From: an uncultured Dehalococcoidia bacterium
GTDB taxonomy: Bacteria; Chloroflexota; Dehalococcoidia; DSTF01; JALHUB01
Direction of reading: 5' to 3'
DNA length: 64,000 bases
Assembly (NCBI GenBank): GCA_964565775.1
Contig: CAZMGB010000006.1
Coordinates: forward strand, 82,941-146,940
Shown here: positions 39,185 to 58,688 of the stretch, in pieces
Layout of the letters: every line of letters starts with the position of its first letter
Numbering within the stretch: the first letter of the stretch is position 1
The notes under the pieces: generated by a model
Told to the model about the DNA's origin: nothing
Database searches by the model: none
The model's input: the letters and a program-made list of their open reading frames with translations, nothing else
Made by a program: the position numbers and the translations under genes

Positions 39185-40345
39185 CTAGGCCACGCCGAAG
39201 TGAGCGCGGTTCCACTTCCGCCCCTCGTCGAGCATGGCGAGGAAGTTCTGCCGGGGAATGTAGTTGGCAGGGGTGTTGCCTGTGCTGAGGCAGTAGCCGG
39301 TGCCTTTGGCGGCGCAGACCGCCAGGATTTCGCGGGTGCGCTGGCGTACGTGCTCCTCGCTCCCCCGCGCCAGATCGTCCATGTCCACGCCTCCGAGAAT
39401 GGTGACGCGGTCTCCCCAGCGACGATAGACCTCCTCCACCGGCATGATCTTGTCCTCGAAGGAGTGCTTGGCGTCGATGCCAAGGTCTATGAGTTCGTCC
39501 ATGATCGTCTCCAGATTGCCACAGGAGTGGAGGAGGAAGGGCTTACCGGCGGCATGAACGATCTCGACGAGACGCTTGTGGTGGGGAAAGATGTACTTGC
39601 GGAGCACAGCCGGCGAGACGAGCGTGCCCGTGGCAAAGCCCATGTCGTCGCCCAGGAAGACCATGCCTACGTTGTCGACGGTGACTGCGTGAGCGACAGC
39701 GGCCGCCGTGAGCTCGCCCACTTTCTGGGAGATCGCCTCAATGAGCTCAGGCTGATCGGCCAGCGCGAAGGAGAAGGACTGCAGCCCCATCAGCCACGAG
39801 GTGTTTTCGAAGATGCCGCCGAAGTTCACGCAGATCTTCATTCCCTCGGGCACGACCGCGTTGAGGTACTCTATCGCGCCGTATCTGATCTCCTCCGGCT
39901 TCTGCCAGGGGTAGGCCTCGAAGTCGGCCCAGCTCTGGATGGGCCCGGTGCTCTCGTCCTGCCAGAACCGACTGCCGCCGGGCCAGTTTCCGAGGGCCGC
40001 GGTATCCGCCGCCACGCCGAAGTTGGCGCGTGGGAAGTTGAGGCCGGTCCACGTGTACACGTAGTCGTAGCCGCTCTCATAGCAGAAGCGAAGGGTGAGA
40101 TCGATGGCTGCACGGCCCCTGAGTGTGCGTGACGGCGAGGTGCGGTCGCCCCCGTCGCCGGCAAGAGCGAGTTCGTCCCAGGTGAACTTCTCGCCTAGGA
40201 CCGCTTCGATCATGCCCGGATCGGCGAACAGCTCGACGAACGGGACGGGGCCGGGAGGGCCCTGCCGGAACAGGGTGCGGCGCAAATTGTTGAAGTTGGG
40301 CTGGCGTTTCACCCGGAACCGCGGGCCGTTCGGTGCAGCTTTCAT
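39185..40345 (-). CDS. URO-D-family methyltransferase (MtaA/MtbA/CmuA-like methylcobamide methyltransferase)
   Basis: 386 aa. The URO-D fold has the Zn/thiol-activating motifs HSCGN and GYCLSTGN. It is an inverted paralogue (about 65-70% aa identity by eye) of the gene at 43661..44791. Confidence 0.75.
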   Translation of the reverse strand: MKAAPNGPRFRVKRQPNFNNLRRTLFRQGPPGPVPFVELFADPGMIEAVLGEKFTWDELALAGDGGDRTSPSRTLRGRAAIDLTLRFCYESGYDYVYTWTGLNFPRANFGVAADTAALGNWPGGSRFWQDESTGPIQSWADFEAYPWQKPEEIRYGAIEYLNAVVPEGMKICVNFGGIFENTSWLMGLQSFSFALADQPELIEAISQKVGELTAAAVAHAVTVDNVGMVFLGDDMGFATGTLVSPAVLRKYIFPHHKRLVEIVHAAGKPFLLHSCGNLETIMDELIDLGIDAKHSFEDKIMPVEEVYRRWGDRVTILGGVDMDDLARGSEEHVRQRTREILAVCAAKGTGYCLSTGNTPANYIPRQNFLAMLDEGRKWNRAHFGVA

Positions 40346-40559: not shown

Positions 40560-41483
40560 TCAGTCGAAGTACGCCGCCTCTGGGCTGTCTTTGAACGCCG
40601 CGTACAGCTCGTCGTAGTTCGCAATCAGGTCACGCAGCGGTTCGGGGTTCTGCCTGCGCGTCGTTACGGCCAGCGGCCTCGGCTTGAGATCGAGGAACGA
40701 CTGAACCCGATTGAACACGGCTCTACGATCCTTGAGCAGGTCTTCGAAGTACAGGGTGAGCTGCGGATGCTCGTGGAAGAGGCCGTCATAGTAGTCGGAG
40801 TCCCGCTCTATCTCCTTGAAGAACTCCCGGCACTCCGTCTCTGAGAGTGTCAAAGGGACTCGGAGCGACTTCCAGGCCGGCTCCCTCGGCCTGAGAAACC
40901 TCCACAATCGGTTGGTCGCCATCAGCGGGTGTCGCGCTGCCCCCGGCACGTTCGACAGCCTGAACTTACTGGCGAGCGTCGCCTTTCGATCTTCAGACCA
41001 TCCTCCGGTCCTCTGTGCGATTCTCAGCGACACGAGCATCCTCAGCAAGTTGCGCCTCCTGAGATGCAGCACACGCAGCTCCGTGTCCTCGACCAGCCCC
41101 TCCAGGAGCCCCGGAAAAGACGAGAAGTGGACATGGGGCATCTTGAAGCCGACGGCACGGATCGCCTTGGGATGCTGGCAGAAGATGCGCTCCCGGAGGA
41201 ACTTCCTCAAGTCCTCGTTCCGTAGCACCCGGTCCTCTGCGCTTGAGTTGTCATATCCTTCGACATGGTAGCCTATGCCGTCCATGATCGGGTTGAAGAG
41301 TTCACGAAAGCAGATGATGTTGGGGCTGGAGTTGAGTGATGAGGCGAGCATGGTAGAGCCAGCCCTGGCATAGGTCAAGATGATGAAGCGGACGTACTCC
41401 GTTGAGCCGATGTTGGTGGCTTGTGGCTTCCCTGTCGAGTCCGTGGCAGCCATCCTCCTCCCGGCGTTCGTCACCGGGCCCAT
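40560..41483 (-). CDS. Sulfotransferase-family protein
   Basis: The PAPS 5'-phosphate-binding-loop-like motif ILTYARAGSTML and overall Stf0-type sulfotransferase features are present. GC is somewhat lower than the surroundings. Confidence 0.55.
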   Translation of the reverse strand: MGPVTNAGRRMAATDSTGKPQATNIGSTEYVRFIILTYARAGSTMLASSLNSSPNIICFRELFNPIMDGIGYHVEGYDNSSAEDRVLRNEDLRKFLRERIFCQHPKAIRAVGFKMPHVHFSSFPGLLEGLVEDTELRVLHLRRRNLLRMLVSLRIAQRTGGWSEDRKATLASKFRLSNVPGAARHPLMATNRLWRFLRPREPAWKSLRVPLTLSETECREFFKEIERDSDYYDGLFHEHPQLTLYFEDLLKDRRAVFNRVQSFLDLKPRPLAVTTRRQNPEPLRDLIANYDELYAAFKDSPEAAYFD

Positions 41484-41756
41484 CCTATTTCAGCGATACC
41501 ACGGATTGCAGTCAAGTCACATGCCGAGCCCGCATTGTTCGAGTGCCCGGCTCACTTGGGCTCGCTCCCCCTGAGGAGGTTGTGGGCGGCGTGGTAGACG
41601 GCACAGGCGCAGACACGCGGGGCCGGCCACGTTCCGTTGTTCCTGTCTGCGCCGTCCGTTTGGCACTTGCCCAAGCGCGGACGACATAGCACAATTGCGC
41701 TCGACAATTGCGGGAGCGCCCGAGAGGGTCCATTTTCGGCGGGAGAGCCTCTGTCC

Positions 41757-42926
41757 ATGGGAAACGGCGCCGTACCCATAAGCCGCGAGCCTCGGTACAA
41801 GGAGGTCATCGCCCGCTGGGAGGCGTTCTGGTCGCTTGAGGACGTGGGCCAGCCTCTGTGGATGGTCCCCACGCACCCCGTTCTCACCGCCACCGCGACT
41901 GGCCACGTCCCCATGCGGCCCTTGCTCCAGGACCGGGAGACGCAGCTCAACGCTCAGGTGGGACTGCTCCGGTGGCGCGAGTCCGTCGACCTGGGAGACG
42001 ACTTCGTACCACATCTTCAGGCCCACCAGGGGGTCACGGTCTTTGCCTCGGCGTTCGGCTGCGAGGTCGAATACTTCGACCACACGCTGCCCTGGGCCCA
42101 CCCCGTGATCAGACCTGAAGACCCGCCGGAGAAGGTCTACGAGCTGCCATCTCCCGCGATCACCGACGGCCAGCTCGGCACGATCCTTGAGTGGGGAGAC
42201 TACTTCGTCGAGCGAACGGAAAGACGCTACGCTCTGGCGGTGACCGACCTTCAGGGCCCTCTGGACAGCTCCTACCTGGTCTGGGAGCCGATGGCGTTCA
42301 TGGTCGCCATGAACACCAACCCCAGGGAAGTGCACCACCTGATGCGCCTGATGACCGACCTGATCATCGCCTTCGTCAAGGAGCAGCGCTCGCGCGTGCC
42401 CGAGTTCATGGCCTGCCACTTCCCGCCCGTCTGGCTTCCCGACGGAAGCGGCATCAGTATGAGCGACGACTGCCTGGCCGTCCTCAGCCCCGCCCTCTAC
42501 GAGGAATTCGTTCTGCCTTATGTCAACGAGTTCTCCGACGAGTTCGGGGGTGTGTTCATCCACTCCTGCGGGAACTTCATGCATCAGCTCAACAACCTCG
42601 AAAAGGTGCACAACCTGCGAGGCCTGAACTTCGAGGCGTCGGAGATGCCCTTCGAGGCCGTATGGGAACGCTTTGGCGGCCGGACGGCCATAGTAGTCCA
42701 CCGGGGCCTCAACAAGCAGATCCACTTCGATTCAGAGGCTGACTACGTGCGGCACGTGCTGCGGGTCAAGACCCACGACCGCGGCCTCTGCGTGTTGGTG
42801 TATCCGCCCGCGACGCGGAGGACGGCGCCTGACAGTCATGCCTCCGCCGCGATCTCCGGGACGGAGGCGGTGTCCCTGATGGATTTCGTTGGGCAAATGC
42901 GCGAGCTTCTGGCCCCTGTTCGCTGA
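41757..42926 (+). CDS. URO-D-family protein (corrinoid methyltransferase-like), paralogue 2
   Basis: The ORF starts at TTG 41637. An ATG at 41757 with a GGGAGAG RBS is the likely start. URO-D-like HSCGN motif; about 390 aa. Confidence 0.65.
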   Translation: MGNGAVPISREPRYKEVIARWEAFWSLEDVGQPLWMVPTHPVLTATATGHVPMRPLLQDRETQLNAQVGLLRWRESVDLGDDFVPHLQAHQGVTVFASAFGCEVEYFDHTLPWAHPVIRPEDPPEKVYELPSPAITDGQLGTILEWGDYFVERTERRYALAVTDLQGPLDSSYLVWEPMAFMVAMNTNPREVHHLMRLMTDLIIAFVKEQRSRVPEFMACHFPPVWLPDGSGISMSDDCLAVLSPALYEEFVLPYVNEFSDEFGGVFIHSCGNFMHQLNNLEKVHNLRGLNFEASEMPFEAVWERFGGRTAIVVHRGLNKQIHFDSEADYVRHVLRVKTHDRGLCVLVYPPATRRTAPDSHASAAISGTEAVSLMDFVGQMRELLAPVR

Positions 42927-42952
42927 GGGCCGGATGACGACGGAGGTGCAAC

Positions 42953-43609
42953 GTGGACCTTTCATCTATCAAGCAGCGGCTGGTTGAGGGGGACGCCCCG
43001 GGGACGGCCGAGGGCACCCGAGAGGCGCTGGCCGAAAAGATCCCGCCGGAGACCATACTCAAAGATGCCCTCATGGTCGGCATGGAGGAGGTGGGTGACC
43101 TCTTCTCCCGCAACGAGTACTTCGTACCTGAGCTCCTACTATCGGCTCGGGCCATGTATGCGGCGCTCGATGTCCTGCGCCCGCTGCTCGTGGGCAGCGG
43201 CTACGAGCCGGCCGGGAAGGTGGTCATGGGCACCGTCCAGGGCGACCTGCACGACATCGGCAAGAAGCTCGTGGGCATGATGCTCGAGGGCAGCGGCTTC
43301 GAGGTCGTCGACCTGGGGGCCAACGTCGCACCCGAGCGCTTTGTGGAGGCCATCAAGGAGAGCGGCGCCAAACTGGTGGGTCTCTCCGCGCTCCTCACCA
43401 CCACCCTCCCCGCCATGGAGGAGACGGTGCGCGCTATCCGCCAGGCGGAGCTCGCGACCGAGGTGCACGTCATGATCGGCGGCGCCCCGGTCACTGACTC
43501 CTTCGCCCAGCAGATCGGGGCCCAGGGCTACGCGCCCGACGCCTCCTCCGCTGCCGCTCTCGCTCGGCGACTGCTCGACCTGCCCGCTCGGCAGGGCGGC
43601 CCCGCCTGA
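42953..43609 (+). CDS. Corrinoid (B12-binding) protein, MtaC/MtbC-like
   Basis: N-terminal B12-binding cap (4-helix) domain, then a Rossmann B12-binding domain with GDLHDIGKK (DxHxxG). GTG start with a GGAGGTG RBS. Confidence 0.9.
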   Translation: MDLSSIKQRLVEGDAPGTAEGTREALAEKIPPETILKDALMVGMEEVGDLFSRNEYFVPELLLSARAMYAALDVLRPLLVGSGYEPAGKVVMGTVQGDLHDIGKKLVGMMLEGSGFEVVDLGANVAPERFVEAIKESGAKLVGLSALLTTTLPAMEETVRAIRQAELATEVHVMIGGAPVTDSFAQQIGAQGYAPDASSAAALARRLLDLPARQGGPA

Positions 43610-43660
43610 GGACCAGCCCGCCCCGAGCGTCGGTGTCCCCCTTAGCGAAGGAGGCTAGGC

Positions 43661-44791
43661 ATGCAGCACCAACCTGACTTCGAGAACCTTCGCCGGACGA
43701 TCCTCCGCCAGGGTCCGCCGGGCCCCGTGCCCTTCTTCGACCTGTTCGCCGACCCGGGCATGGTTGAGGCCGTGCTGGAGGAGAAGTTCCCCGTAAACCT
43801 GCACCGCTACATCGAAGAGCCCACCCTGGAGTTTCCCGAGGATGAGCTGCTGGGTCTGATGAAGTCAATCGAGATGTACGTCCGCTTCTGCCGCGAGGTG
43901 GGCTACGACTACGTGTTCATGGTGACGGGCTTCAGCCTTCAGCGAACCTTCCAGGCCGCCGCCGACACCGCCACAGCCGAGAACTGGCCCGGTGGTCAGC
44001 GCTACTGGCAGGATGAGAGCACCGGCCCGATCCAGAGCTGGGCGGACTTCGAGGCCTATCCCTGGCCCAAGGCCGAGGATCTGAACCACGCAGCGCTCGA
44101 GTACGTCAACGCCATCTTGCCGGAGGGGATGAAGATCGCGGCATTCATGTACGGCGGCATCTTCGAGCACTCTACCTGGCTCATGGGCCTGCAACCCTTC
44201 TCTTTCGCTCTCCGCGACCAGCCCGACCTGATAGAGGCGATCTGCCAGCGAGTGGGCGAGCTCGCCACAGCCACCTGCGCCCAGGCCGTCACCATTGACA
44301 ACGTCGACATGGTGTTCCTCAGCGATGACCTTGGATTCTTCAGTGGCACCCTCGTTTCGCCGGACGTGATCCGTCGCTACATCCTCCCCCATTACAAGAA
44401 GATCACCGACACTGCGCACCAAGCCGGCAAGCTGCTCGTCTTCCACTCCTGCGGGAACATGTACAAGCTAATGGACGACCTTGTCGACGACGTCGGCATC
44501 GACGCCAAGCACTCGTTCGAGGACAAGATCGTGCCCGTGGAGGAGGCCTGCCGTCGCTGGGGTGACCGGGTCGCGATCCTGGGTGGAGTGGACATGGACG
44601 TGCTCGGTCGGGGCACGGAAGAGCAGGTTCGGGCTCGCACCCGTCAAATCCTGGAGGTCTGCGGAGTCAAAGGCACCGGCTACTGCCTGGGCAGCGGCAA
44701 CACGGCCGCTAACTACATCCCAAAGCAGAACTACCTGGCCATGCTGGACGAGGGGCGTCGCTGGAACCGAGAGCATTTCGGGGCGGGCTAG
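43661..44791 (+). CDS. URO-D-family methyltransferase (MtaA/MtbA/CmuA-like), paralogue 3
   Basis: 376 aa. Same motifs as 39185..40345 (HSCGN, GYCLGSGN). GGAGG RBS. Confidence 0.75.
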   Translation: MQHQPDFENLRRTILRQGPPGPVPFFDLFADPGMVEAVLEEKFPVNLHRYIEEPTLEFPEDELLGLMKSIEMYVRFCREVGYDYVFMVTGFSLQRTFQAAADTATAENWPGGQRYWQDESTGPIQSWADFEAYPWPKAEDLNHAALEYVNAILPEGMKIAAFMYGGIFEHSTWLMGLQPFSFALRDQPDLIEAICQRVGELATATCAQAVTIDNVDMVFLSDDLGFFSGTLVSPDVIRRYILPHYKKITDTAHQAGKLLVFHSCGNMYKLMDDLVDDVGIDAKHSFEDKIVPVEEACRRWGDRVAILGGVDMDVLGRGTEEQVRARTRQILEVCGVKGTGYCLGSGNTAANYIPKQNYLAMLDEGRRWNREHFGAG

Positions 44792-44888
44792 GGCGGTCGT
44801 GGGCGGGGGTCCCCAGACCCGCGCGACTCCGTCGGGGTGTGAAGACCCCAACTTGCGAAGATGCATCCGCGTGGAGGTGAGGTAAGCC

Positions 44889-45770
44889 GTGACTAACGAT
44901 GATTCGCCGGCCGCGAGCCCAAGTGCACAACTGGGCATCCTCAAGCTGCTAGGTCTGGTAGAGGCCTTCGACCCAACTCGACGTTTCAAGCTCGTTCGTC
45001 ACCAAGAGCAAGGCCTTGACCTGCAGGACTTCCCCAAGGACTGGCTCGAAGCCTACCAGGCCTTCCAAGAGAAACCAGTCTTCGACGGGCTTGATTTCAT
45101 CGTTTCCTTCATTGGAGCTGGCCGCACCCAGGCGCGTCTCGTGGGTGTCTACGAAGTCCTGGGACGAAAGCCAGGACATGCGGGACGCCTGCCGGAAGGG
45201 TGCCCCCATAAAGAGTGGCTGGATTCCCATTACTTCTATCAGATGCAGCGGCTATCTGCATTCGAAGCGCTTGAGGGCAGGGTGGTAATCGAGTGGGGCA
45301 AGGGAACTAGGCGCTGGCATCAAAGGCCAACGAACAAGGAGGTGGTCCAAATCCTGCCCCAGGGTCAGCCCGTCGCGATGTTCGACGACTACCTCGGGTT
45401 CACACTGAGGTACGACCAGCTGAAGGACCTGTATCGCAGGCCCGAGGTCAATAGGGAATGGCGCGCTCGCTTGAGCGCAGTTGCAGGCGTCTATTTGATC
45501 CTTGCCACGACGACAGGGGCACAGTACGTCGGCTCGGCGCATGGGGTAGAGGGGTTCTGGGGCCGCTGGGCAGCGTACGCGAAAGACGGGCACGGGGGGA
45601 ACAAGCTGCTGAGCGATCTCGTGGAGAAAGACCGTGACTACCCAGAAAAGTTCTCCTACTCGATTCTTCAGATACTCCCACCGACCTTTGCCCGAAGCGA
45701 AGTGCTGAAATGGGAGGGCTTGTACAAGCAGAAGCTGGGTAGCCGGAGCGTCGGTTTGAATGTGAATTGA
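44889..45770 (+). CDS. Protein with C-terminal GIY-YIG nuclease-like domain and N-terminal domain of unknown function
   Basis: The C-terminus has GVYLILATTTGAQYVGSA...R...H..GGN...E (a GIY-YIG-like core). GC is about 55%, against about 68% for neighbours. It lies inside an otherwise co-directional methyltransferase operon. Confidence 0.5.
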   Translation: MTNDDSPAASPSAQLGILKLLGLVEAFDPTRRFKLVRHQEQGLDLQDFPKDWLEAYQAFQEKPVFDGLDFIVSFIGAGRTQARLVGVYEVLGRKPGHAGRLPEGCPHKEWLDSHYFYQMQRLSAFEALEGRVVIEWGKGTRRWHQRPTNKEVVQILPQGQPVAMFDDYLGFTLRYDQLKDLYRRPEVNREWRARLSAVAGVYLILATTTGAQYVGSAHGVEGFWGRWAAYAKDGHGGNKLLSDLVEKDRDYPEKFSYSILQILPPTFARSEVLKWEGLYKQKLGSRSVGLNVN

Positions 45771-45836
45771 GTGCCTCGGGTTCCAGCCACCGGCACCCCG
45801 TCTCTGGCGAGGTTCACCGCCTCTTAAAGCACTTCC

Positions 45837-47021
45837 ATGAAGGAGTCGCAGGCCATGCTCCCCCGGGAGCGCGTCCTCACGGCGCTTAACCACGAAGAGC
45901 CCGATCGCGTCCCCATCGACCTGGGCAGCACGAGGGTCACCGGCATCTGCCTGGACGCCTACGAGGGGCTCCGTGATGCCCTGGGCCTGGGCCAGCGCGA
46001 GCTGCGGGTGGTGGACCGCAGCCAGGGACTGGCCGGACCGGACGAGGACGTGCTGGAGGCGCTGGGCGTCGACTTCCGGCCGGTGTGGACGAACCCGCCT
46101 TCGGGCGGCGAGCCACCCGTTGCTCAGGAGGGGGAATACGAAGTCTACTTCGACGAGTGGGGCTGTCGACGGAGCCGCCCCCGCTCGGGCGGCCTCTACT
46201 TCGATATGACCGAGCCGGCCATAATGGAGCCCAGCATGGAGGCCCTGGAGAAGTTCCGCTGGCCTGACGTCGACGACTCCGCGCGCTACGAAGGGCTGCG
46301 CGGGCTGGCGCAGCGCCTTCGCGAGGAGACGTCCTACGCTCTGGTCGGCCACTGCGATTTCGGCCACGATATGCTGGGGTCCTTCCTCAACGTGCGCGGC
46401 TACACGGAGGCGATGCTCGACCTGGCCGCCCACGCGGACTTCGTCGAGGCATTCATGGAGGGGGCAACGCGACTGGCCCTGCGGGCCTGGGAGCACTTCC
46501 TGGAGCAGGTGGGCGAGCTGGTGGACGTGGTGCTCTGCTACGACGACCTGGGCATGCAGGACCGCCCCCTCATCTCACCCGCGATGTACCGGCGACTGAT
46601 CAAGCCCTACCACGGCCGCGTCATCGCCGCCATCCACAAACGCACCCCGGCGAAGGTGTTCTTCCATACCGACGGCGCCGTGGCCGAGTTCATTCCCGAT
46701 TTCATCGAGATAGGCGTAGACATCCTTAACCCTGTGCAGGTATCGGCGGCCGGCATGGAGGATACGGGCGCCCTCAAGAGGCGCTATGGCAAGAACCTGG
46801 TCTTCTGGGGCGGGGCCTGCGACTCCCAGAGGGTTCTCCCCTTCGGAAGCCCGGAGGACGTCCGGCTCGAGTCGCGACGTCGCATCGCCGACCTGGCGCC
46901 GGGGGGAGGCTTCGTCTTCGCCCCCGTCCACAATATTCAGTGCGACGTTCCGGGCGAGAACACTCTCGCTTTCTTCCAGAGCGCGCGGGAGGCCGGCCGC
47001 TACCCGGTCGCCGGCCCCTAG
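45837..47021 (+). CDS. URO-D-family protein (corrinoid methyltransferase-like), paralogue 4
   Basis: 394 aa. N-terminus PRERVLTALNHEEPDRVPIDLG is typical of the MtaA/URO-D family; URO-D fold. Confidence 0.65.
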   Translation: MKESQAMLPRERVLTALNHEEPDRVPIDLGSTRVTGICLDAYEGLRDALGLGQRELRVVDRSQGLAGPDEDVLEALGVDFRPVWTNPPSGGEPPVAQEGEYEVYFDEWGCRRSRPRSGGLYFDMTEPAIMEPSMEALEKFRWPDVDDSARYEGLRGLAQRLREETSYALVGHCDFGHDMLGSFLNVRGYTEAMLDLAAHADFVEAFMEGATRLALRAWEHFLEQVGELVDVVLCYDDLGMQDRPLISPAMYRRLIKPYHGRVIAAIHKRTPAKVFFHTDGAVAEFIPDFIEIGVDILNPVQVSAAGMEDTGALKRRYGKNLVFWGGACDSQRVLPFGSPEDVRLESRRRIADLAPGGGFVFAPVHNIQCDVPGENTLAFFQSAREAGRYPVAGP

Positions 47022-47030
47022 ATCAGCATT

Positions 47031-48689
47031 ATGTCAGGTCCGCATACCGGAAACACTGTGCGCGTCCGCTTCCATGACTTCGACTCCGAGGTCGAGGTGG
47101 AACGCGGGAAGACCGTTCTCGAGGCGGTGCGCCAGGCCGGCCTCGCGCTGGAGTCGGAGTGCGGCGGCCGCGCCACCTGCGGAAGCTGCCGCGTCCGCTT
47201 CCTCCAGGGCGCCCCCGCGCCCGGCGCCGACGATCGCCTGCTCCTCGACGACGAAGACATCGCTCAGGGGTGGCGCCTCGCCTGCCAGACCACGCTCACA
47301 GAGGACTGCCGCATCGCCCTCCCGGCGGCCGTCGCCGAGGGCGGGCTGCGCATCCTCACCGAGACGTACGGGATCGGAGAGGCTCCACCGATCATCCCAA
47401 GCACCGCCGTCGGTGCGTACGGCGCCGCCATCGATGTCGGTACGACCACAGTGGTCTGCTACCTGCTGGACCTCGCGCACGCGCGCCAGGTCGGCGTCGC
47501 CTCTTTCGCCAACCCGCAACGGCGACTGGGCCCGGATGTCATCTCCCGCATCGTCTACGCCCACCAGAGCCGCGAGCACCTGATCGAGGCCCGCGATTGC
47601 CTGGTCGAGGCGGTAGAGGAGGCGCTGGTGGCTCTTTGCCGCGAGCACCGCCTGCCGCTGGACGCCCTATCCCGCATCACGGTGGTCGGCAACCCCACCA
47701 TGCTCCACCTTCTGTGCGCCGTCGACCCCTGGTCACTGGGCATAGTGCCTTACCAGCCCGCGTTCACCGACGCAGCCGCCGTCGCCGCGGGCGAGGTGGG
47801 CTTCCGCCGTCTGGCCGGGGCCGAGCTGATTCCTCTGCCGGGCGTGGCGGGACATCTGGGCGCCGACGCCGTCGCCGGTCTACTGGCGCTGGGCCTCTCC
47901 GGGCGCCGAGGGCTGTTCCTGTCCATGGACATGGGCACCAACGGCGAGCTGCTGCTCGTCTCAGACGATGACGCCGTCGGCGCTTCCTGCGCCGCCGGAC
48001 CCGCTTTCGAGGGGGTGCACATCTCTTCGGGGATGGCCGCCCTCCCAGGCGCCGTCGAACGGGTGGACGAGGAGGACGGACGGCTGGCACTTGAGACCAT
48101 CGACGGCGCCGCGCCCTGCGGCATCTGCGGTTCAGGACTCGTCGACGTCGTGGCGCTGCTCGTGCGCCGGAGAATGCTGACGACCGGCGGACGCCTGCCC
48201 GAGCCCGCCGAGCTTCCCGAAGGCCTGCCGCGAGACCTGAGCCAGCGCCTGCGAGCGGACGACGAAGGCCGCCGTTTCGTCCTCTACGAGGATGGCGCGG
48301 GCCCGACCGTGGCCCTGACACAACGCGACATCCGTGAGGTGCAACTGGCCAAGGCCCCCATCCGTGTAGGGGTAGAGGTGCTGCTCGAGGAGATCGGCGC
48401 TGGGCCGAACCAGGTGGACGCCGTGTTCGTGGCCGGGGCCTTCGGCAGCTCCATCCGCCCGGCCAGCCTGCTGGCCCTGGGCATCCTGCCTACCGCCATG
48501 ACGGGCCGCATCCACCCTGTCGGCAATCTGGCCGGAATGGGCGCCAAAGTGGCCCTCGCCTCGGACGAGCGCCTGGAGGAGGCCCGCCGCCTCGCCCGCC
48601 GCATCCGGCACGTGGAGCTGATGCTGCGAGAGGACTTTCACGCCCGCTTCGCCGACCACATCCCGTTCCCGGAGCCGTCTCAAACATGA
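47031..48689 (+). CDS. Corrinoid reductive activase (RACo/RamA family: N-terminal [2Fe-2S] ferredoxin + ASKHA ATPase, DUF4445)
   Basis: Plant-type ferredoxin motif CGGRATCGSCRV...C, then a DUF4445/ASKHA domain (IDVGTTTV, MDMGTNGEL). The ORF ends with an ATGA overlap onto the next gene. Confidence 0.85.
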   Translation: MSGPHTGNTVRVRFHDFDSEVEVERGKTVLEAVRQAGLALESECGGRATCGSCRVRFLQGAPAPGADDRLLLDDEDIAQGWRLACQTTLTEDCRIALPAAVAEGGLRILTETYGIGEAPPIIPSTAVGAYGAAIDVGTTTVVCYLLDLAHARQVGVASFANPQRRLGPDVISRIVYAHQSREHLIEARDCLVEAVEEALVALCREHRLPLDALSRITVVGNPTMLHLLCAVDPWSLGIVPYQPAFTDAAAVAAGEVGFRRLAGAELIPLPGVAGHLGADAVAGLLALGLSGRRGLFLSMDMGTNGELLLVSDDDAVGASCAAGPAFEGVHISSGMAALPGAVERVDEEDGRLALETIDGAAPCGICGSGLVDVVALLVRRRMLTTGGRLPEPAELPEGLPRDLSQRLRADDEGRRFVLYEDGAGPTVALTQRDIREVQLAKAPIRVGVEVLLEEIGAGPNQVDAVFVAGAFGSSIRPASLLALGILPTAMTGRIHPVGNLAGMGAKVALASDERLEEARRLARRIRHVELMLREDFHARFADHIPFPEPSQT

Positions 48690-49600
48690 GTGGCGCGGGT
48701 GGGCCGAAAGACGCGCCCCTCGGCCGCGAGCTGTCCCGCTGTCCGCTGGTCTACGACGGCTCCAAGGGAGTCTATCTGTCGGAGCGACTGGCGTCCGTCG
48801 GGCGCTCGCCCGGAGACGCCAGCGAGTGGCTGAACCTCCTCTCGCCGAAGGTCGTCCGGCAGATGCACCGCGAGTACATCGACGCCGGCGCCCAGATGAT
48901 CCAGACGAACACCTTCAACGGCAATCGACTGCGTCTGGAGGCCTACGGACTGGGCGACCGTGTGCACGAGGTGAACGTCGCCGCCGCCCGCATCGCACGC
49001 GAGGCCGCAGGCGATGACGTGTGGGTCGCGGGCGTTGTGGGCCCGAGCGGAAAGCTCCTCGCCATGGGCGAGGTGAACGAGCGGGCCCTCGTCGGCGCCT
49101 TCGCCGAGCAAGCCGCGGCCCTGGCCGAGGGTGGTGTAGACCTGTTCCACGTCGAGACCATGAGCGACTTGACCGAAGCGAGGGCCGCCGTCGAGGGCGT
49201 GCGCCGTGTCGCCGATCTGCCGCTGCTCCTCACGATGTCATTCGACACCGGGAAGCCGGAGGCGCTGCGCACGATGATGGGTGTGACGCCCGCACAACTG
49301 GTGGATGCGGCCCGGGAGATGGAGCTCTTTGGTCTCGGCGCCAACTGCGGTCGCGGCCTGGAGGGCTACCAGGAGCTGGTCCGGGCGCTGGCGCAGCCCC
49401 AGGGCGCGCTCGTCGCCAAGCTCAATGCCGGCATCCCGCGCATGGAAGGGTCTCAGGTCGTCTATGACGGCACGCCGGAGAGGATGGCCGCATACGCCCT
49501 CTGGTGCGTCGAGAACGGCGTCAGCATCGTCGGGGGCTGCTGCGGTAGCACGCCCCGCCACATCGAGGCCATGGCTCGAGCGATTGCCCGGATGGGGTAA
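48686..49600 (+). CDS. Homocysteine S-methyltransferase-domain protein (MetH Hcy-binding / BHMT family, Pfam S-methyl_trans)
   Basis: IQTNTF, GANCGRG and [11 protein letters not shown] match the Zn-binding Cys triad region of the Hcy-binding barrel. It is translationally coupled (4-nt overlap) to the RACo gene. Confidence 0.8.
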
Positions 49601-49677
49601 GCCCACGGCGGCGCTGGACGGGGCACACGGCCCTCGCATAACATGAAGCTGAGGCGGCCGACCTCGGATCCGGTGCT

Positions 49678-50751
49678 ATGGCAAATTCCGAATCGCCCCT
49701 GCAAGCGTACCTGAAGCCCGTTCCCACGCCACCGGGCGTCAGCAGCCGCGAGATCGTGCGCCGCGCCGTTGAGTTCGACGACCCGCCACGCATACCGTAC
49801 AGCTTCATCCAGCCGCTGGAGTCGGACTTCGTGGAGCTGGCGGTAGTCACCCCCAGCCGCATCGAGATGTCGAACGTCCCGAAAGGAGAGTTCATCGTCG
49901 ATGAGTGGGGCGTGGGAGTGCGCAGCTCGGGGACGAGCTGGGGCCACGCCGAATCGCATCCGCTGGCGGACCTCAACGCCCTGGACGGCTACAGCTTCCC
50001 CGACGTCACGAACCGCGAGCGCTTCCAGGCGGCAGCGGGGCTGGCGAGGGCGGGCGACGCAGCCGGCAAGTACGTCGTCGGGGCGGACCCGATCCTGGGC
50101 ATCGAGCGCCTGCGGCTGCTCGTCGGCTTCGACAACCTCATGGTGGCGCTGTACACGGAGCGTTCGCAACTCGACCGCCTGATCGACAGGCTGGTGGACA
50201 TGACGCTTGAGGTCGTGCGGATGTACGCGGACATGGGCAACGTACACGGCTTCATGACCTGGGAGGACTGGGGCCTCCAGACCACGCTCCAGATCAGGCC
50301 GGCGCAGTGGCGCGAGATCTTCAAGCCGCGCTACTCACGCATCGTCCAGGCCACGCACGCCGCCGGCATGCACTACCTCTTCCACTGTTGCGGCCAGATC
50401 CTGGACATCATTCCGGACCTCATCGAGATCGGCGTCGACGTGCTCCAGCTCGACCAGCCCCGGCTCATGGGCGTGGACCACCTCGCAGACGAGTTCGGGG
50501 GCAAGATCTGCTTCTGGAACACGGTGGACATCCAGTGGTCGCCCGACCCTGAAGTCACGCTCGATGAGCTGAGAGCCGAAGTCAAGCACATGGTGGGTGC
50601 CTTTGATCGATTCGGCGGAGGCTTCATCGCGCGGCAGTACCCCCAACCCTGGGACATCGGCATGCCTCGCGAGAAGCACCAGGCGATCTACGAGGCGTTC
50701 ATGGAATACGGCTGCGGCCTGCGCCCGGAGCCCGGCGAGGCCGGAAGCTAG
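49678..50751 (+). CDS. URO-D-family protein (corrinoid methyltransferase-like), paralogue 5
   Basis: 357 aa URO-D-like fold with an HCCGQ motif. Confidence 0.6.
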
Positions 50752-50772
50752 GCGGGCCAACGGACGACACGG

Positions 50773-51903
50773 ATGGCACCGAAGCAAGAGATGACCCCAC
50801 GGGAGCGGCTGCTGGCCGCCCTCCGTCGCCAGCCCTGCGACCGCGTCCCCTTCACGCCGCTGGTGGAGGGCTACTTCCAGCTATCACTGCCCGACGGGCG
50901 GACGCGACACATCGCCGACCTCCAGTACGAGATGTCGGGCCACATGCTCGTCCGGGCGGGGGTGCTGCGCATCAACACGCCCCTCTGGCTGGGCGCGACC
51001 GCCACGGACCTGGCGGCTGGCGTCGAGCAGCGGGCGTCGACCGTAGACGGCGACATCATCCACACCGTAGAGACCCCCGTCGGCAGCTTGACGTGGCGCC
51101 TCCGCTTCGCGCCCGAGAGTCCCTACATCCCCTGGGTCATCGAAAACCGCATCCGCACCGTCGAAGACATCAGGACGTTCCAGTACCTCATCGAGCGGAC
51201 GACGTTCGAGCTCGACACGCGCTACTTCGAGAGCCAGACGTCCTACGTCGGCGACCGAGGGATCGTGGCCATCCTGGGACCGACCTCCCCTCTCCAGCAG
51301 ATGATCAACTTCGAAATGGGGCTCGAGCGCGTGATCTACATGCTGGCCGACCACCCGGACGAGATGCACGAGATGCTGGACGCCTACCACGCCAAGCAGG
51401 CCGCAATGTGGCGTCTCATGGCCGAGGTGCCGGCCGAGGTCGCCTTCGTCCACGACAACCTGTCCAGCACCACAACCTCGCGCCCCATGTACCGCACCTA
51501 TGACCGGCGTTATGTCAATGAGTACGCGGACATATTGCACGCCAGCGGCAAGACCTTCCTCACCCACTGGTGCGGCAAGCTCACCGGCTTCGCGAAAGAC
51601 GTCGCCGAAGCGCGCCAGGACGGCATCTCAGACGTTACGCCGCCGCCAACGGGCGACCTCGACATCATCGAGGCGCGCCGCACCTGGGCCAAGCGGTTCG
51701 TCCTGCTCGGAGGGATCGACCCGACGCTCTTCGCCCTGGGCACGCCTCAGAAGATGGAGGCCTACGTAACCGACCTGCTGGAGCGGATGGGGCCGGACCG
51801 ACGCGGCTTCATACTCGGCAGCGGCGACGCCGTCCCCTACGGCACCCCGGCCGAGAATCTCCGCGCGGCCGCCGACACGGCCGCCCGCTTCCCCGTGGCG
51901 TGA
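50773..51903 (+). CDS. URO-D-family protein (corrinoid methyltransferase-like), paralogue 6
   Basis: 376 aa. N-terminus PRERLLAALRRQPCDRVPF is the family signature. The motif is THWCGK. Confidence 0.65.
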   Translation: MAPKQEMTPRERLLAALRRQPCDRVPFTPLVEGYFQLSLPDGRTRHIADLQYEMSGHMLVRAGVLRINTPLWLGATATDLAAGVEQRASTVDGDIIHTVETPVGSLTWRLRFAPESPYIPWVIENRIRTVEDIRTFQYLIERTTFELDTRYFESQTSYVGDRGIVAILGPTSPLQQMINFEMGLERVIYMLADHPDEMHEMLDAYHAKQAAMWRLMAEVPAEVAFVHDNLSSTTTSRPMYRTYDRRYVNEYADILHASGKTFLTHWCGKLTGFAKDVAEARQDGISDVTPPPTGDLDIIEARRTWAKRFVLLGGIDPTLFALGTPQKMEAYVTDLLERMGPDRRGFILGSGDAVPYGTPAENLRAAADTAARFPVA

Positions 51904-55511: not shown

Positions 55512-55798
55512 GGTACGGCACCCCCGGTTATCGCCAGCGAAACCACTGCGTCACGCCGAAGGGAGGCGTCCTTCGGCGGCGCTACGTGTTTGACTTCTTG
55601 TAGTTCTAAGCGGGGCCTAAGGACGATGGCTATCTCCGTGACAGATAGCACCGACACGGTGCTCTGTCAAGCACCACGCGGGCCGATGGATCAGTCAACG
55701 GATATCGAACGGATTATCGGATACCTTCCGGTACGTATCCGCTAATCCGTTTCAGCATTCGTCGACAGACCGCCGCAGAGCCCGCAGCGCGCCGGGTC

Positions 55799-55975
55799 CT
55801 AGAGGTAGCCGTAGGTGGGATCTAGCCGTCGACGCAGCTCGTTCTCGTCTTCGGGACGCCCCGCCAGCGCCGACTGCATCCTCTCCAGCTACCGGCGCTC
55901 GATCCTGGACAGGGTGAGAAGAGAGGCGTCCGGAACCTCGCGGATCAAGTGGGTCGCCGCCCGCTTCCCGGTGAG
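55799..55975 (-). pseudogene. C-terminal remnant of an MtaB paralogue (59 codons, internal stop)
   Basis: It reads LTGKRAATHLIREVPDASLLTLSRIERR*LERMQSALAGRPEDENELRRRLDPTYGYL*, against the 58756..60165 C-terminus AATLIREAVDASLLSLSKAECRWLDRIQSSLASLPEDEEELRERVAPTCGHLYDPASYAL. DNA similarity is about 75%. It lies in frame immediately 3' of the PLP-enzyme gene stop. Confidence 0.55.
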
Positions 55976-57169
55976 CTAGCCAAGCGCCTGATCCAGGTCG
56001 GCGATGAGGTCCTCAGCGTCTTCCAGCCCGATGCTGATGCGCATGATCCCCTCGCCCACCCACTCGCGTATCGCCTTCTTCTGCTCGGCGCTCAGATACG
56101 CAGCGCTGTCCACGTAGAGGTCAGTGGGGTAGTAGAACATCAGGCTCTGGTAGTCGCCCAGCGACGTGGCATAGGTGAAGACGCGCACCTGCTGGACAAG
56201 ACCCATCGCCGTCTCCATGTCCGTCTGCGCGACGACCATGCCGCCGAAGCCCGACATCTGGCGCCGCACCAGGTCGGGCTGGGGGTGGCTCTCCAGGCCG
56301 GGGTAGAGGACGCGCCCGATCTTCGGATGCTGTTCGAGGAAGCGAGCCACCGCCAGCGCGCTCTCCTCATGCTTCTGCATCCGCAGCGATAGGGTGGCGA
56401 TGCCGCGATTGATGAGCCAGGCGTTGAACGGGCTCATGGCGCCGCCGAGATGGATCAGCATGCCCTCGCGGATTCGCTGGATGCCTTCTCGGGCTCCCAG
56501 CACGATCCCGCCCAGAGCGTCGCCGTGCCCGCCGAGGTACTTCGTCATGCTGTGGAGGACGAAGTCCGCCCCGAGGGCCAGCGGCTTCTGCAAGACCGGG
56601 GTGGCGAACGTGCTGTCGACTACGAGCGGCGCGCCTGCCTGGTGAGCGATGTCGGCGACGGCGGCGATGTCGGTCAGGCGAAGGATGGGGTTGGCAGGGG
56701 TCTCGATGTACACAAGCTTGGTGTCAGGACGAACGGCATCGCGCACAGCCTTCACGTCGCTCGTGTCCACCAGGCTCACGTCGATGCCGTAGCGGCCGGC
56801 GTGCAGCCCGAACAGCTCCGAGCTGCCCGCGTAGCATACGTCGCTCGCCACCAGGTGCTCGCCGGCGCCGACGAAGGTGAGCAGCAGGGCGGAGACGGCC
56901 GCCATGCCCGAGGCGAACGCGACGCCCGCGTCGGCGCCCTCAAGCGCAGCCATCTTCTCCTCGAGCGTGCGCAGCGAGGGGTTGCTCCAGCGGGTGTAGA
57001 CGTGCGGCGGCCGCTCTCCCCTGAGGAAGAGCGCGTCCATCAGGAGCGGGCCCGGCTCGGGCAGCTTGAAGGTGGTCGTCATGTGGATCGGCGGCGTTAC
57101 GGAGCCCGTAGTGGGGTCCGGCTCCTGACCGGCGTGGACGGCCTGCGTATCGAATCGGTACTCGCTCAT
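55976..57169 (-). CDS. Cys/Met-metabolism PLP-dependent enzyme (methionine gamma-lyase / cystathionine gamma-synthase / O-acetylhomoserine sulfhydrylase family)
   Basis: 397 aa. The PLP-lysine region HSMTKYLGGHGD is present, and the family-typical N-terminus FDTQAVHAGQ. Confidence 0.85.
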   Translation of the reverse strand: MSEYRFDTQAVHAGQEPDPTTGSVTPPIHMTTTFKLPEPGPLLMDALFLRGERPPHVYTRWSNPSLRTLEEKMAALEGADAGVAFASGMAAVSALLLTFVGAGEHLVASDVCYAGSSELFGLHAGRYGIDVSLVDTSDVKAVRDAVRPDTKLVYIETPANPILRLTDIAAVADIAHQAGAPLVVDSTFATPVLQKPLALGADFVLHSMTKYLGGHGDALGGIVLGAREGIQRIREGMLIHLGGAMSPFNAWLINRGIATLSLRMQKHEESALAVARFLEQHPKIGRVLYPGLESHPQPDLVRRQMSGFGGMVVAQTDMETAMGLVQQVRVFTYATSLGDYQSLMFYYPTDLYVDSAAYLSAEQKKAIREWVGEGIMRISIGLEDAEDLIADLDQALG

Positions 57170-57224: not shown

Positions 57225-58688
57225 CTACTCCTCCCACTCGGCGGCCTCGAAGTCGGCCACGGTGCGCTTCCTGACCATGCTTACGTAGTCCAGGAGCTCC
57301 CTCTCCACAGACGGGTCCAGCTCGCGCCGCTGGTGACGCGCCAGGAGCTCTCGCACCCGCTCCCGCGCCAGGTCCAGCGCCGTCTTCGACCCCTTGCTCT
57401 CCCATACCTCCCGGCTGTCCCTCCGCAGCAACTTCGGAAGGAAATGCTCGCGCCGGAAGTGCTCGGCGGTGTGCGGCTCGGCCAGATAGTGGCCCTGCCA
57501 GCCCACCTGCTTGATCAGGTCGAGAGCGATGGTGTCTTCGCTCACGTCGACGCCACGCGCCAGTCGGAGCATGAGCCCGCACAGCTCATCGTCCAGCACG
57601 AGCAGGGGATGGCTCTCGGTAGTCGTGGATTCGAGCGCCCCACCGCAGGTGATGAAGTGCACCCCTGCCAGGACCGCCGGCATCAGCGTGCTGGCCCGCT
57701 CCAGCATGCACTGGAGGTCCAGCGTCTTGGCGTCAGTGGTGCCACCCACGCCTCGACAGGGCAGGCCATAGTGACGGGCCAGTTGGGCCGCGCCGGCGGT
57801 GATGAGGCCCGTCTCCACCGCGCCGAGCGCCACGTTGCCGGTCGCCATGTCGGCGAGCGTCGACACGGTGCCGTAGAGCACCGGCGTGCCCGGGGCGATG
57901 ATCTGGGCCAGGGTGATGTGGGCCAGGATCTCGGCGTTCTGCTGGGCGAGCAGTCCGGCCAGAGTGGCGGGAGCGGTGGTGCCGGCCATTGCCTCCGGTG
58001 ACATCGCCATCGGCTGGCCGTACTCGGCGAAGAGGAACATGCCCTCGAGCTGGAGGTTGATCATCTGGAGGGGGCTCATGACCGAGCAGATGCCGAAGAA
58101 GCGGGGTCGCTTCTTCAGCTCCTCCTTCCCGCCCACGGCGATCGCCATCATCCGCATCATGTCCTCGCTGGCCATCACCCCGTAGCACCCCATGCCGAAC
58201 GACTTGCGACAGTTCTGGGCCCAGGCAAGTATCGCTTCGACGTGGATGGTGGTCATTGGTATGTCGGTCGGCCAGATGTCCATCTGGCTGTTGTTGATAT
58301 GATCGAGGCCGTCGATCAGGCGGAGGTGGTTACGCACGTCCTCGAGGGTGGTGGGCCGGAGCTCACCCGTCTCCGTATCGAAGATCCTCGTCGGGGTGCC
58401 GAGCGCCGCGAAGTTCACCCGGTCGCTGCCGATCTCCAGACGCACGTCCGGGTCGGACCCGTAAAGCGTGAACTGCTTCGGCGCCTGCTCGACGGCCCGA
58501 CGCACCAGCTCCTCCGGTATGCGCACCGAGCGGGCCGCCTCATCCACATCCGCCCCCGCCTCCCGGAAGGCGTCCCTCGCCCTCTTGAGGTTCACGCGAA
58601 GGCCCACGCTCTCCAGGATGCTCATCGAAGCAGCGTCGATCTGCTCGACTTCCGCGGGACTAAGGACTTCGAAGTACGCTGGTTTCAT
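57225..58688 (-). CDS. MttB-superfamily (trimethylamine/quaternary-amine:corrinoid) methyltransferase, non-pyrrolysine type
   Basis: 487 aa. N-terminus FEVLSPAEVEQIDAASMSILESVGLRV is typical of MttB/MtgB-family proteins. The continuous ORF has no in-frame amber, so it is the non-Pyl clade. Confidence 0.75.
   Translation of the reverse strand: MKPAYFEVLSPAEVEQIDAASMSILESVGLRVNLKRARDAFREAGADVDEAARSVRIPEELVRRAVEQAPKQFTLYGSDPDVRLEIGSDRVNFAALGTPTRIFDTETGELRPTTLEDVRNHLRLIDGLDHINNSQMDIWPTDIPMTTIHVEAILAWAQNCRKSFGMGCYGVMASEDMMRMMAIAVGGKEELKKRPRFFGICSVMSPLQMINLQLEGMFLFAEYGQPMAMSPEAMAGTTAPATLAGLLAQQNAEILAHITLAQIIAPGTPVLYGTVSTLADMATGNVALGAVETGLITAGAAQLARHYGLPCRGVGGTTDAKTLDLQCMLERASTLMPAVLAGVHFITCGGALESTTTESHPLLVLDDELCGLMLRLARGVDVSEDTIALDLIKQVGWQGHYLAEPHTAEHFRREHFLPKLLRRDSREVWESKGSKTALDLARERVRELLARHQRRELDPSVERELLDYVSMVRKRTVADFEAAEWEE

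Follow-up and report, generated by a model that had tools for sequence, protein, structure and literature searches.

A stand-alone MetH-type homocysteine methyltransferase, coupled to a corrinoid activase gene in an uncultured Dehalococcoidia bacterium, is probably the homocysteine module of a split methionine synthase

We examined a 64,000-nucleotide stretch of DNA from an uncultured Dehalococcoidia bacterium (GenBank assembly GCA_964565775.1, contig CAZMGB010000006.1, positions 82,941 to 146,940 of the forward strand; G+C 65.8%), referred to here as the window, in which the gene for a RACo-type reductive activase runs directly into the gene for a stand-alone homocysteine (Hcy) S-methyltransferase, hereafter HcyMT. 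A gene for a corrinoid protein lies upstream of the pair on the same strand. The features on which the argument turns are as follows.

47031-48689, plus strand: RACo-type reductive activase, 552 amino acids (Pfam Fer2, E 5.7e-14; Raco_middle, E 3.7e-44; RACo_C_ter, E 1.8e-63)
48686-49600, plus strand: HcyMT, stand-alone homocysteine S-methyltransferase, 304 amino acids (PF02574 only)
48686-48689, plus strand: ATGA stop/start overlap of the RACo and HcyMT genes, read from the sequence
42953-43609, plus strand: corrinoid (B12-binding) protein of the MtaC/MttC/MtgC type (B12-binding_2 and B12-binding, PF02607 and PF02310)

The activase carries a [2Fe-2S] ferredoxin domain, a middle domain and an ASKHA ATPase domain, with N-terminal cysteines at residues 44, 50, 53 and 85; we take DUF4445 to be PF14574, the C-terminal domain of RACo. 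Against NCBIfam it scored 313 bits with an AcsV-like model, which is under the cut-off. Its stop codon (TGA, 48687-48689) overlaps the start codon of HcyMT (ATG, 48686-48688), exactly as the original prediction, made from the sequence alone, had described. Four-nucleotide stop/start overlaps are common in bacterial operons and a single one is unremarkable; we therefore rejected the ATGA overlap as stand-alone evidence and gave it weight only through its conservation across loci. An (A/G)TGA overlap was kept at 13 of 13 related loci in which RACo lies upstream of HcyMT, and a CCGGAGCC element (GGAG) was conserved 11 nucleotides 5′ of the HcyMT start in the same 13 loci. An overlap conserved in this manner would keep the activase and the Hcy module co-expressed.

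HcyMT consists almost entirely of one domain. Residues 21-299 matched positions 1-282 of the 283-position PF02574 (S-methyl_trans) profile (E 3.7e-68), and since this was the sole Pfam match, with no pterin-binding, B12-binding or activation domain in the scan, the earlier statement that HcyMT lacks the pterin, B12 and S-adenosylmethionine (AdoMet, SAM) activation modules of MetH was correct. Both proposed motifs of the zinc-binding signature were also found, GANCGRG at residues 218-224 and the second motif at residues 283-293. In phmmer alignments, Cys221, Cys285 and Cys286 aligned with the zinc-ligand cysteines of Thermus MetH, and this triad, with one cysteine in the NC motif and two in GGCCG, was invariant in 16 family members. 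The DG, TNTF, GPSG, ETM and NAGIP motifs were present in HcyMT, and the family motifs were invariant throughout the 16-member clade set. The clade is set apart at its N-terminus, where DGSKG and an insertion of 4 residues stand in place of the DGAxGT of other family members.

Comparison with solved structures placed HcyMT nearest to MetH. The sequence scores were 171 bits for Thermus MetH, 142 for Thermotoga MetH and 113 for human MetH, as against 56 for BHMT and 35 for MmuM. An AlphaFold2 model of HcyMT (predicted local distance difference test score 87, predicted template modelling score 0.88) was compared with known folds by Foldseek, which gave template modelling (TM) scores of 0.84-0.88 and root-mean-square deviations of 2.3-2.7 Å for the Thermus and Thermotoga MetH Hcy domains, with Thermus MetH the best match (TM 0.88); the scores were lower for BHMT (TM 0.72-0.78) and MmuM (TM 0.67-0.76). 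HcyMT thus shares the (beta/alpha)8-barrel fold, the zinc-binding cysteine triad and the motifs of the MetH Hcy domain (residues 1-353 of E. coli MetH; structures 8SSC, 9CBR, 1Q7M and 3BOF), and presumably its chemistry; unlike MetH, HcyMT carries none of the pterin, B12 and AdoMet-reactivation domains, and its identity to the E. coli domain is 33%. By sequence and predicted structure, HcyMT is of the MetH type in its fold and active site and is not MmuM-like. An MmuM-type identity, which we also considered, was rejected on sequence, fold and tree, MmuM being only 25% identical to HcyMT and a distant outgroup in the tree described below.

We then placed HcyMT within PF02574 as a whole. The best NCBIfam model was NF005718, 'betaine--homocysteine S-methyltransferase' (PRK07534), at 248.8 bits with a cut-off of 338, followed by YitJ (241.3 bits) and MetH (184.1 bits). 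BLASTP identity was 42% to YitJ-type N-terminal domains, 41% to a Terrarubrum bmt product and 40% to S. meliloti Bmt. A tblastn search of a plasmid/chromid collection gave alphaproteobacterial bmt genes as top matches (37-42% identity), above MetH (~31-33%). The closest matches among genomes (73-80% identity) were all metagenome-assembled genomes (MAGs) labelled Dehalococcoidia, and an identical copy of HcyMT was also present in a Logan assembly. On clustering at 50% identity, the clade was reduced to a single representative (P0057, 415.5 bits), with the next match, P0122, at no more than 53% identity and 240 bits; stand-alone size (up to 360 amino acids) was found in 92 of the 149 nearest cluster representatives.

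In a neighbour-joining tree with 100 bootstraps, the Dehalococcoidia clade was monophyletic in 100 of 100 replicates, and in 99 none but stand-alone proteins entered its sister group. The smallest clade uniting it with S. meliloti Bmt was free of E. coli-type MetH in 83 of 100 replicates, of YitJ fusions in 82 and of all proteins longer than 360 amino acids in 71; deep branching was otherwise poorly resolved. By the equivalog cut-off of NF005718, its best model, HcyMT does not qualify as an MtgE/Bmt orthologue; its grouping with these proteins in the tree has 71-83% support. We place HcyMT among the stand-alone Hcy modules, which form a large radiation to which 'Bmt'/MtgE also belongs. Longer relatives also occur: ten proteins of 424-781 amino acids were combinations of Hcy with pterin, of Hcy with MTHFR, or of Hcy with unassigned extensions. 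Another observation concerns the relative P0186 (444 amino acids), in which an N-terminal PF13769 'Virulence_fact' domain is fused to the Hcy methyltransferase domain.

The 'Bmt'/MtgE group has been characterised genetically in Alphaproteobacteria. Fitness genetics in Phaeobacter inhibens defined a three-part MetH composed of a PF02574 protein (PGA1_c13370), a pterin protein (PGA1_c16040) and a corrinoid protein (PGA1_c13350), with B12 reactivation served by a 'RamA-like' protein that joins ferredoxin and DUF4445 (PGA1_c15200) and by a DUF1638 protein (Price et al. 2018, PMC5764234). In Ruegeria pomeroyi, methionine synthesis required the corrinoid protein MtgC and the pterin module MtgD, and so did the demethylation of glycine betaine by the MttB-family enzyme MtgB; the Hcy module was named MtgE, and the S. 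meliloti 'Bmt' was reinterpreted as MtgE (Mausz et al. 2025, PMC12478193). The S. meliloti bmt locus has an MttB-family gene, a cobalamin-binding protein and DUF1638 nearby. The MtgE/'Bmt' proteins (P. inhibens PGA1_c13370, R. pomeroyi SPO1884, S. meliloti SMc04325) are, like HcyMT, stand-alone PF02574 proteins of ~300-340 amino acids; both systems have a separate corrinoid protein with B12-cap and B12-binding domains and an activase with ferredoxin and DUF4445; and the corrinoid protein serves catabolic donor methyltransferases as well in the MtgE system and, judging from the genes, probably also at our locus. By contrast, the HcyMT clade is distinct, lies under the NCBIfam cut-off and belongs to Dehalococcoidia rather than Alphaproteobacteria.

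The name of the best-scoring model invites another reading, in which HcyMT would be a methyl-onium:homocysteine methyltransferase like Bmt, BHMT or MmuM that needs no cofactor and is methylated straight from betaine, dimethylsulfoniopropionate (DMSP) or S-methylmethionine as donors, and the corrinoid genes would be unrelated to its chemistry. Purified P. inhibens Bmt did form methionine from DMSP and betaine without tetrahydrofolate (THF) or cobalamin (PMC12366255), and an MttB-family gene, of the quaternary-amine type, is present in the island around HcyMT. The in vitro assay, however, was performed at 200 µM enzyme, hence with low turnover (PMC12366255), and the S. meliloti-type 'Bmt' has been argued to be an MtgE module that lacks the betaine-binding residues of true BHMT (Mausz et al., PMC12478193). 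The score of HcyMT against the model is itself below the cut-off. BHMT, MmuM and YitJ belong to the same superfamily and share zinc-thiolate activation of homocysteine, but animal BHMT and MmuM are distant from HcyMT by score and use no corrinoid, while YitJ, whose N-terminal domains are as similar to HcyMT as MtgE is, is fused to MTHFR. Moreover, this reading can hardly account for the overlap with a corrinoid activase gene or for the adjacency to corrinoid protein genes in many different orders, and we consider it improbable.

To describe these orders, we collected ~100 loci encoding HcyMT relatives, of which ~90, on metagenome and MAG contigs, came from uncultured Dehalococcoidia, and mapped their flanks (up to 10 kb) by tblastn with the window proteins and with the MetH pterin, MTHFR and MetH activation domains. 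Across the ~90 Dehalococcoidia loci, the HcyMT gene lay beside RACo, a corrinoid protein or methyltransferases of the URO-D and MtaB families. Within the close clade (at least 72% identity), RACo was directly upstream on the same strand in 9 of the 18 loci with at least 1.8 kb of upstream sequence, and a URO-D gene took that position in the other 9; where the flank of these URO-D loci was long enough, a corrinoid protein gene was found further upstream within the array (L008, L021, L022, L033 and L040, in the last at 5.4 kb). The clade at 54-71% identity had a different order, namely corrinoid protein, HcyMT and convergent RACo. Of its loci, 23 had a downstream flank, and in 16 of these RACo was the next gene, in convergent orientation; of the 31 with an upstream flank, 9 had the corrinoid protein immediately before HcyMT, and others had it elsewhere in the flank. 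Further arrangements were corrinoid protein, MtaB, HcyMT (L058 and L096), MtaB directly downstream of HcyMT (L003, L006 and L007, with L003 and L007 from one MAG contig) and, at L019, L059 and L070, a minimal trio in which HcyMT and RACo were accompanied by a corrinoid protein but by no further methyltransferase. Overall, 24 loci offered 2 kb or more on each side of HcyMT, and 17 of these encoded RACo or a corrinoid protein within 5 kb.

The association also extended beyond the clade, as a 53%-identical protein of a separate 50% cluster has RACo directly upstream. In a Lentisphaeria MAG (L012, 8620-11980), a 41%-identical stand-alone HcyMT and a URO-D-family gene form a unit behind an AraC-type regulator, with no corrinoid protein or RACo within 10 kb; the pairing of an Hcy module with URO-D thus recurs in another phylum. 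Of the more distant matches, L010 and L011 were Hcy-MTHFR fusions of the YitJ type and L013-L016 were full-length MetH. The recurrence of the same partners in co-directional overlapping, convergent and interleaved orders is the strongest evidence that HcyMT works with the corrinoid protein and the activase.

Together, these sequence and model data indicate that HcyMT is probably a methyl-corrinoid-protein:homocysteine methyltransferase that forms the Hcy module of a split methionine synthase resembling MetH, with its reaction, partner and methyl source inferred. A substrate-specific methyltransferase would first methylate the Co(I) form of the corrinoid protein; candidate loaders are the URO-D paralogues, MtaB, the MttB-family enzyme and possibly an unlinked methyl-THF-binding module. 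HcyMT would then move the methyl group from the methyl-Co(III) corrinoid protein to a zinc-activated homocysteine thiolate, yielding methionine. RACo, using ATP and its [2Fe-2S] cluster, would reduce corrinoid protein inactivated by oxidation to Co(II) back to Co(I), thereby taking over the role of the AdoMet-dependent reactivation domain of MetH. The partner in the window is likely the product of 42953-43609, which scored 192 bits with an MtgC-like NCBIfam model and 174 bits with pyl_corrinoid, carries DLHDIG (DxHxxG) at residues 98-103 and was the only corrinoid protein that tblastn detected in the window. The best reading of the gene content is that this protein and the activase are shared between HcyMT and the substrate-specific methyltransferases. 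The original prediction had HcyMT working in trans with the neighbouring corrinoid protein; the conserved linkage of HcyMT to RACo and corrinoid proteins at ~90 loci, in varying orders, speaks for such action in trans with a corrinoid protein. As a whole, the reading of a split MetH acting in trans is well supported by comparative genomics.

Several observations weigh against this assignment. HcyMT falls under the NCBIfam equivalog cut-offs of both the 'BHMT' and the MetH models, and ~30% of the loci with both flanks have neither RACo nor a corrinoid protein within 5 kb (L002, L075, L078 and L079). None of the ten relatives of 424-781 amino acids is a fusion of Hcy and B12 domains that lacks a pterin domain. 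Searches of the ~90 flanks and of the window turned up no pterin-binding module, and they therefore offer no candidate methyl donor for a purely anabolic synthase. Finally, the formation of methionine from DMSP or betaine by the P. inhibens Bmt homologue in vitro, without B12 or THF (PMC12366255), means that corrinoid-independent activity is possible for this clade.

Readings of the split synthase differ in where its methyl groups come from. Judging from the genes, it is plausible that methyl groups released by the demethylases would pass straight into methionine, as originally proposed. A stronger version, in which HcyMT is the main or only methyl acceptor of the island and no folate module takes part, so that methyl groups from methoxylated aromatics, methanol and methylated amines pass through one corrinoid protein to homocysteine, is one that we put forward tentatively, as a possibility falling somewhat short of an even chance. 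Alternatively, HcyMT could be the Hcy module of a folate-dependent split MetH that receives 5-methyl-THF through an unlinked pterin protein; little or no demethylase methyl would then go straight to methionine, and co-location with URO-D, MtaB and MttB genes would reflect only a shared corrinoid protein and activase. The P. inhibens system offers a precedent for this, as its pterin module (PGA1_c16040) and activase (PGA1_c15200) have locus tags far from PGA1_c13350 and PGA1_c13370 (PMC5764234), and the trios at L019, L059 and L070 have no methyl-donor enzyme nearby. Yet neither a pterin-binding (PF00809-type) nor an MTHFR gene was found in any of the ~90 related flanks. In the window, no pterin-binding gene was present among the ~44 open reading frames (ORFs) scanned or detected by tblastn with the MetH pterin domain, no MtrH-type gene was present, and no scanned ORF matched DUF1638 (PF07796). 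The placement of a URO-D gene directly upstream of HcyMT in half of the close loci, the flanking of HcyMT by MtaB in L003/L007, L006, L058 and L096, and the two-gene Hcy/URO-D pair in Lentisphaeria likewise argue against folate dependence, and on balance we regard it as rather unlikely. Because the pterin module and activase of Phaeobacter lie at distant locus tags, the absence of such genes from the flanks does not prove folate independence.

The pair is embedded in an array of nine same-strand genes (41637-51903) separated by gaps of 26, 51, 97, 66, 9, -4, 77 and 21 nucleotides, within which no terminator-like site was found. Its order is URO-D paralogue b, the corrinoid protein, paralogue c, a 293-amino-acid ORF, paralogue d, RACo, HcyMT, paralogue e and paralogue f. 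The remaining genes of the array and of the surrounding island are the following.

41637-42926, plus strand: URO-D/MtaA-family methyltransferase paralogue b, first gene of the array (PF01208, E 1e-14; HSCG motif)
43661-44791, plus strand: URO-D/MtaA-family methyltransferase paralogue c (PF01208, E 1.1e-20; 63% identical to paralogue a)
44889-45770, plus strand: 293-amino-acid ORF interrupting the array (weak C-terminal GIY-YIG match, E 0.031)
45837-47021, plus strand: URO-D-family methyltransferase paralogue d, 9 nucleotides upstream of RACo (PF01208, E 4.2e-19)
49678-50751, plus strand: URO-D-family methyltransferase paralogue e (PF01208, E 4e-11)
50773-51903, plus strand: URO-D-family methyltransferase paralogue f, last gene of the array (PF01208, E 2e-22)
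39185-40345, minus strand: URO-D-family methyltransferase paralogue a, divergent from the array (PF01208, E 7.6e-23)
58756-60165, minus strand: MtaB-family methanol:corrinoid methyltransferase homologue (PF12176, E 1.1e-162)
57225-58688, minus strand: MttB-superfamily methyltransferase (PF06253, E 1.7e-115)
55976-57169, minus strand: pyridoxal phosphate (PLP) enzyme of Cys/Met metabolism (PF01053, E 8.7e-123)

The island holds members of donor methyltransferase families together with a carrier and an activase: six URO-D paralogues, MtaB, an MttB-family enzyme, one corrinoid protein and one RACo. Five of the URO-D paralogues carry the HxCG motif, as in MtaA-type enzymes, with matches to MtaA that were weak (23-69 bits), and these paralogues may act as either donor or acceptor enzymes. 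Solved structures gave no assignment, as one paralogue matched MtaA at only 28.8 bits and another had no match. Paralogue d has HTDG in place of the HxCG that is typical of zinc-binding MtaA-type enzymes and found in the other five, and from this difference in sequence its metal site or role may differ from theirs. Where recorded (L008), the URO-D gene directly upstream of HcyMT in a close relative best matched paralogue d. The MttB-family gene scored 419.8 bits with a trimethylamine enzyme model whose cut-off is 525, and its uninterrupted ORF points to a non-pyrrolysine member.

Other observations concern the composition of the island. The 293-amino-acid ORF has a G+C content at third codon positions of 0.69, compared with ~0.85 in its neighbours, and is present in the source genome (L001) and not at the same position in L005, L008, L021 or L022; it is probably a mobile insertion of the GIY-YIG type. 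Directly downstream of the PLP gene lies a decayed remnant of MtaB (55790-55975, minus strand; tblastn E 5e-15) that comprises the last ~65 codons with two in-frame stops. Since intact MtaB directly follows HcyMT in L003, L006 and L007, this remnant indicates that the island has been rearranged in this genome. Between two URO-D paralogues is a sulfotransferase-like gene with weak Sulfotransfer_1/3 matches (40560-41483, minus strand). An HpaB-family flavin monooxygenase gene lies near the island (31158-32585, plus strand), as in the relative L021 (3801-5234), and a luciferase-like monooxygenase gene is also near it in the window; O2-dependent aromatic hydroxylases beside the island suggest aromatic substrates and a lifestyle that is not strictly anaerobic. 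Unrelated to the finding, the segment 1862-10272 (plus strand) encodes a class A penicillin-binding protein and then a 1994-amino-acid bacterial alpha-2-macroglobulin, which is a usual gene pairing.

The PLP enzyme bears on a further interpretation of HcyMT. Models for methionine gamma-lyase, cystathionine gamma-synthase and (O-succinylhomoserine) sulfhydrylase scored it alike, all under cut-off, and from sequence it could either supply homocysteine or cleave methionine; its gene adjoins the MttB-family gene in L003 (16529-17731) and L007 as well. HcyMT might depend on a corrinoid without being a methionine synthase, either running in reverse to demethylate methionine, S-methylmethionine or a methylthio compound, or methylating another thiol or a selenol in an MtaA-like acceptor slot. 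In MtsA-type enzymes, methyl transfer between a zinc-bound thiolate and a corrinoid can run in either direction. HcyMT is the sole methyltransferase of the island outside the recognised donor families (URO-D, MtaB, MttB), the PLP enzyme kept in the island of relatives has methionine gamma-lyase as its best score, and the DGSKG motif and 4-residue insertion set the clade apart from other members of the family. On the other side, no family motif varies within the clade set, and among the conserved residues are the Asp of DG and the Glu of ETM, which presumably contact the homocysteine amino group as in BHMT and MetH structures. Demethylation of a thioether onto Co(I) is thermodynamically unfavourable. 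The closest genetically characterised relative serves methionine synthesis (PMC5764234). We give this interpretation little chance, and continue to favour HcyMT as the Hcy module of a split methionine synthase.

Compared with MetH itself, reactivation in such a synthase would presumably depend on ATP and ferredoxin through RACo, instead of on flavodoxin and AdoMet. A parallel in logic comes from the folate-independent core-MetE synthases fed by corrinoid proteins, which include MesB of Dehalococcoides (Price et al. 2021, PMC7857596). MesA and MesB (PMC7857596, PMC7005905) follow the same proposed scheme of a minimal zinc-dependent Hcy methyltransferase without a folate domain that is fed by a corrinoid, and MesB in Dehalococcoides mccartyi is a precedent within the same bacterial class; their sequence family, however, is unrelated, being MetE-type (PF01717) rather than MetH-type (PF02574). 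With the Odm and MtoABCD O-demethylases, MtaABC and MtgABC, the island shares donor methyltransferases, an MtaC-type corrinoid protein and a RACo-type activator. The acceptor in those systems is normally a methyl-corrinoid:THF, tetrahydromethanopterin or coenzyme M methyltransferase, whereas here the sole candidate that is not of a donor type is HcyMT.

The original prediction regarded this organisation as departing from the textbook, which was an overstatement. Split MetH is known in P. inhibens (PMC5764234) and a corrinoid protein shared with MttB-family demethylases in R. pomeroyi (PMC12478193), and a split MetH whose corrinoid is methylated by alternative methyltransferases is thus already in the literature. 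Our literature searches found no published description of such a cluster in Dehalococcoidia or in O-demethylase systems; a preprint on mlp clusters describes MtaA/MtaB/MtaC homologues without an Hcy domain (PMC10418091). What is new here is the lineage, whose HcyMT proteins form a clade of their own; the translational coupling that joins the activase to the Hcy module across loci; the context rich in URO-D and MtaB; and the failure to find either a folate module or DUF1638 nearby. In Phaeobacter the activase is at a locus tag distant from that of the Hcy module (PGA1_c15200 and PGA1_c13370), whereas here the two are translationally coupled. The neighbours here are mainly of the URO-D family and MtaB type, and not only of the MttB type as in the MtgE system, and neither a pterin module (MtgD) nor a DUF1638 gene was found in the window or in any flank.

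The general principle has been published, and the gain lies in scope and architecture rather than in concept. If our assignment is true, split B12-dependent methionine synthases would occur outside marine Alphaproteobacteria as well, in uncultured Dehalococcoidia, where they would be wired into URO-D/MtaB/MttB demethylase islands and would tie the supply of methionine and SAM directly to the availability of B12 and methylated substrates. It would also explain the many 'methionine synthase I' and '5-methyl-THF--homocysteine methyltransferase' labels given to 300-amino-acid proteins, and the corrinoid protein, RACo, the Hcy module and one donor methyltransferase would form a compact candidate set for reconstituting a folate-independent MetH-type synthase. 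Should the folate-free reading also be true, HcyMT would do within PF02574 what MesA and MesB do among the core-MetE enzymes, and the methionine/SAM cycle would be a sink for environmental methyl groups in widespread uncultured Dehalococcoidia.

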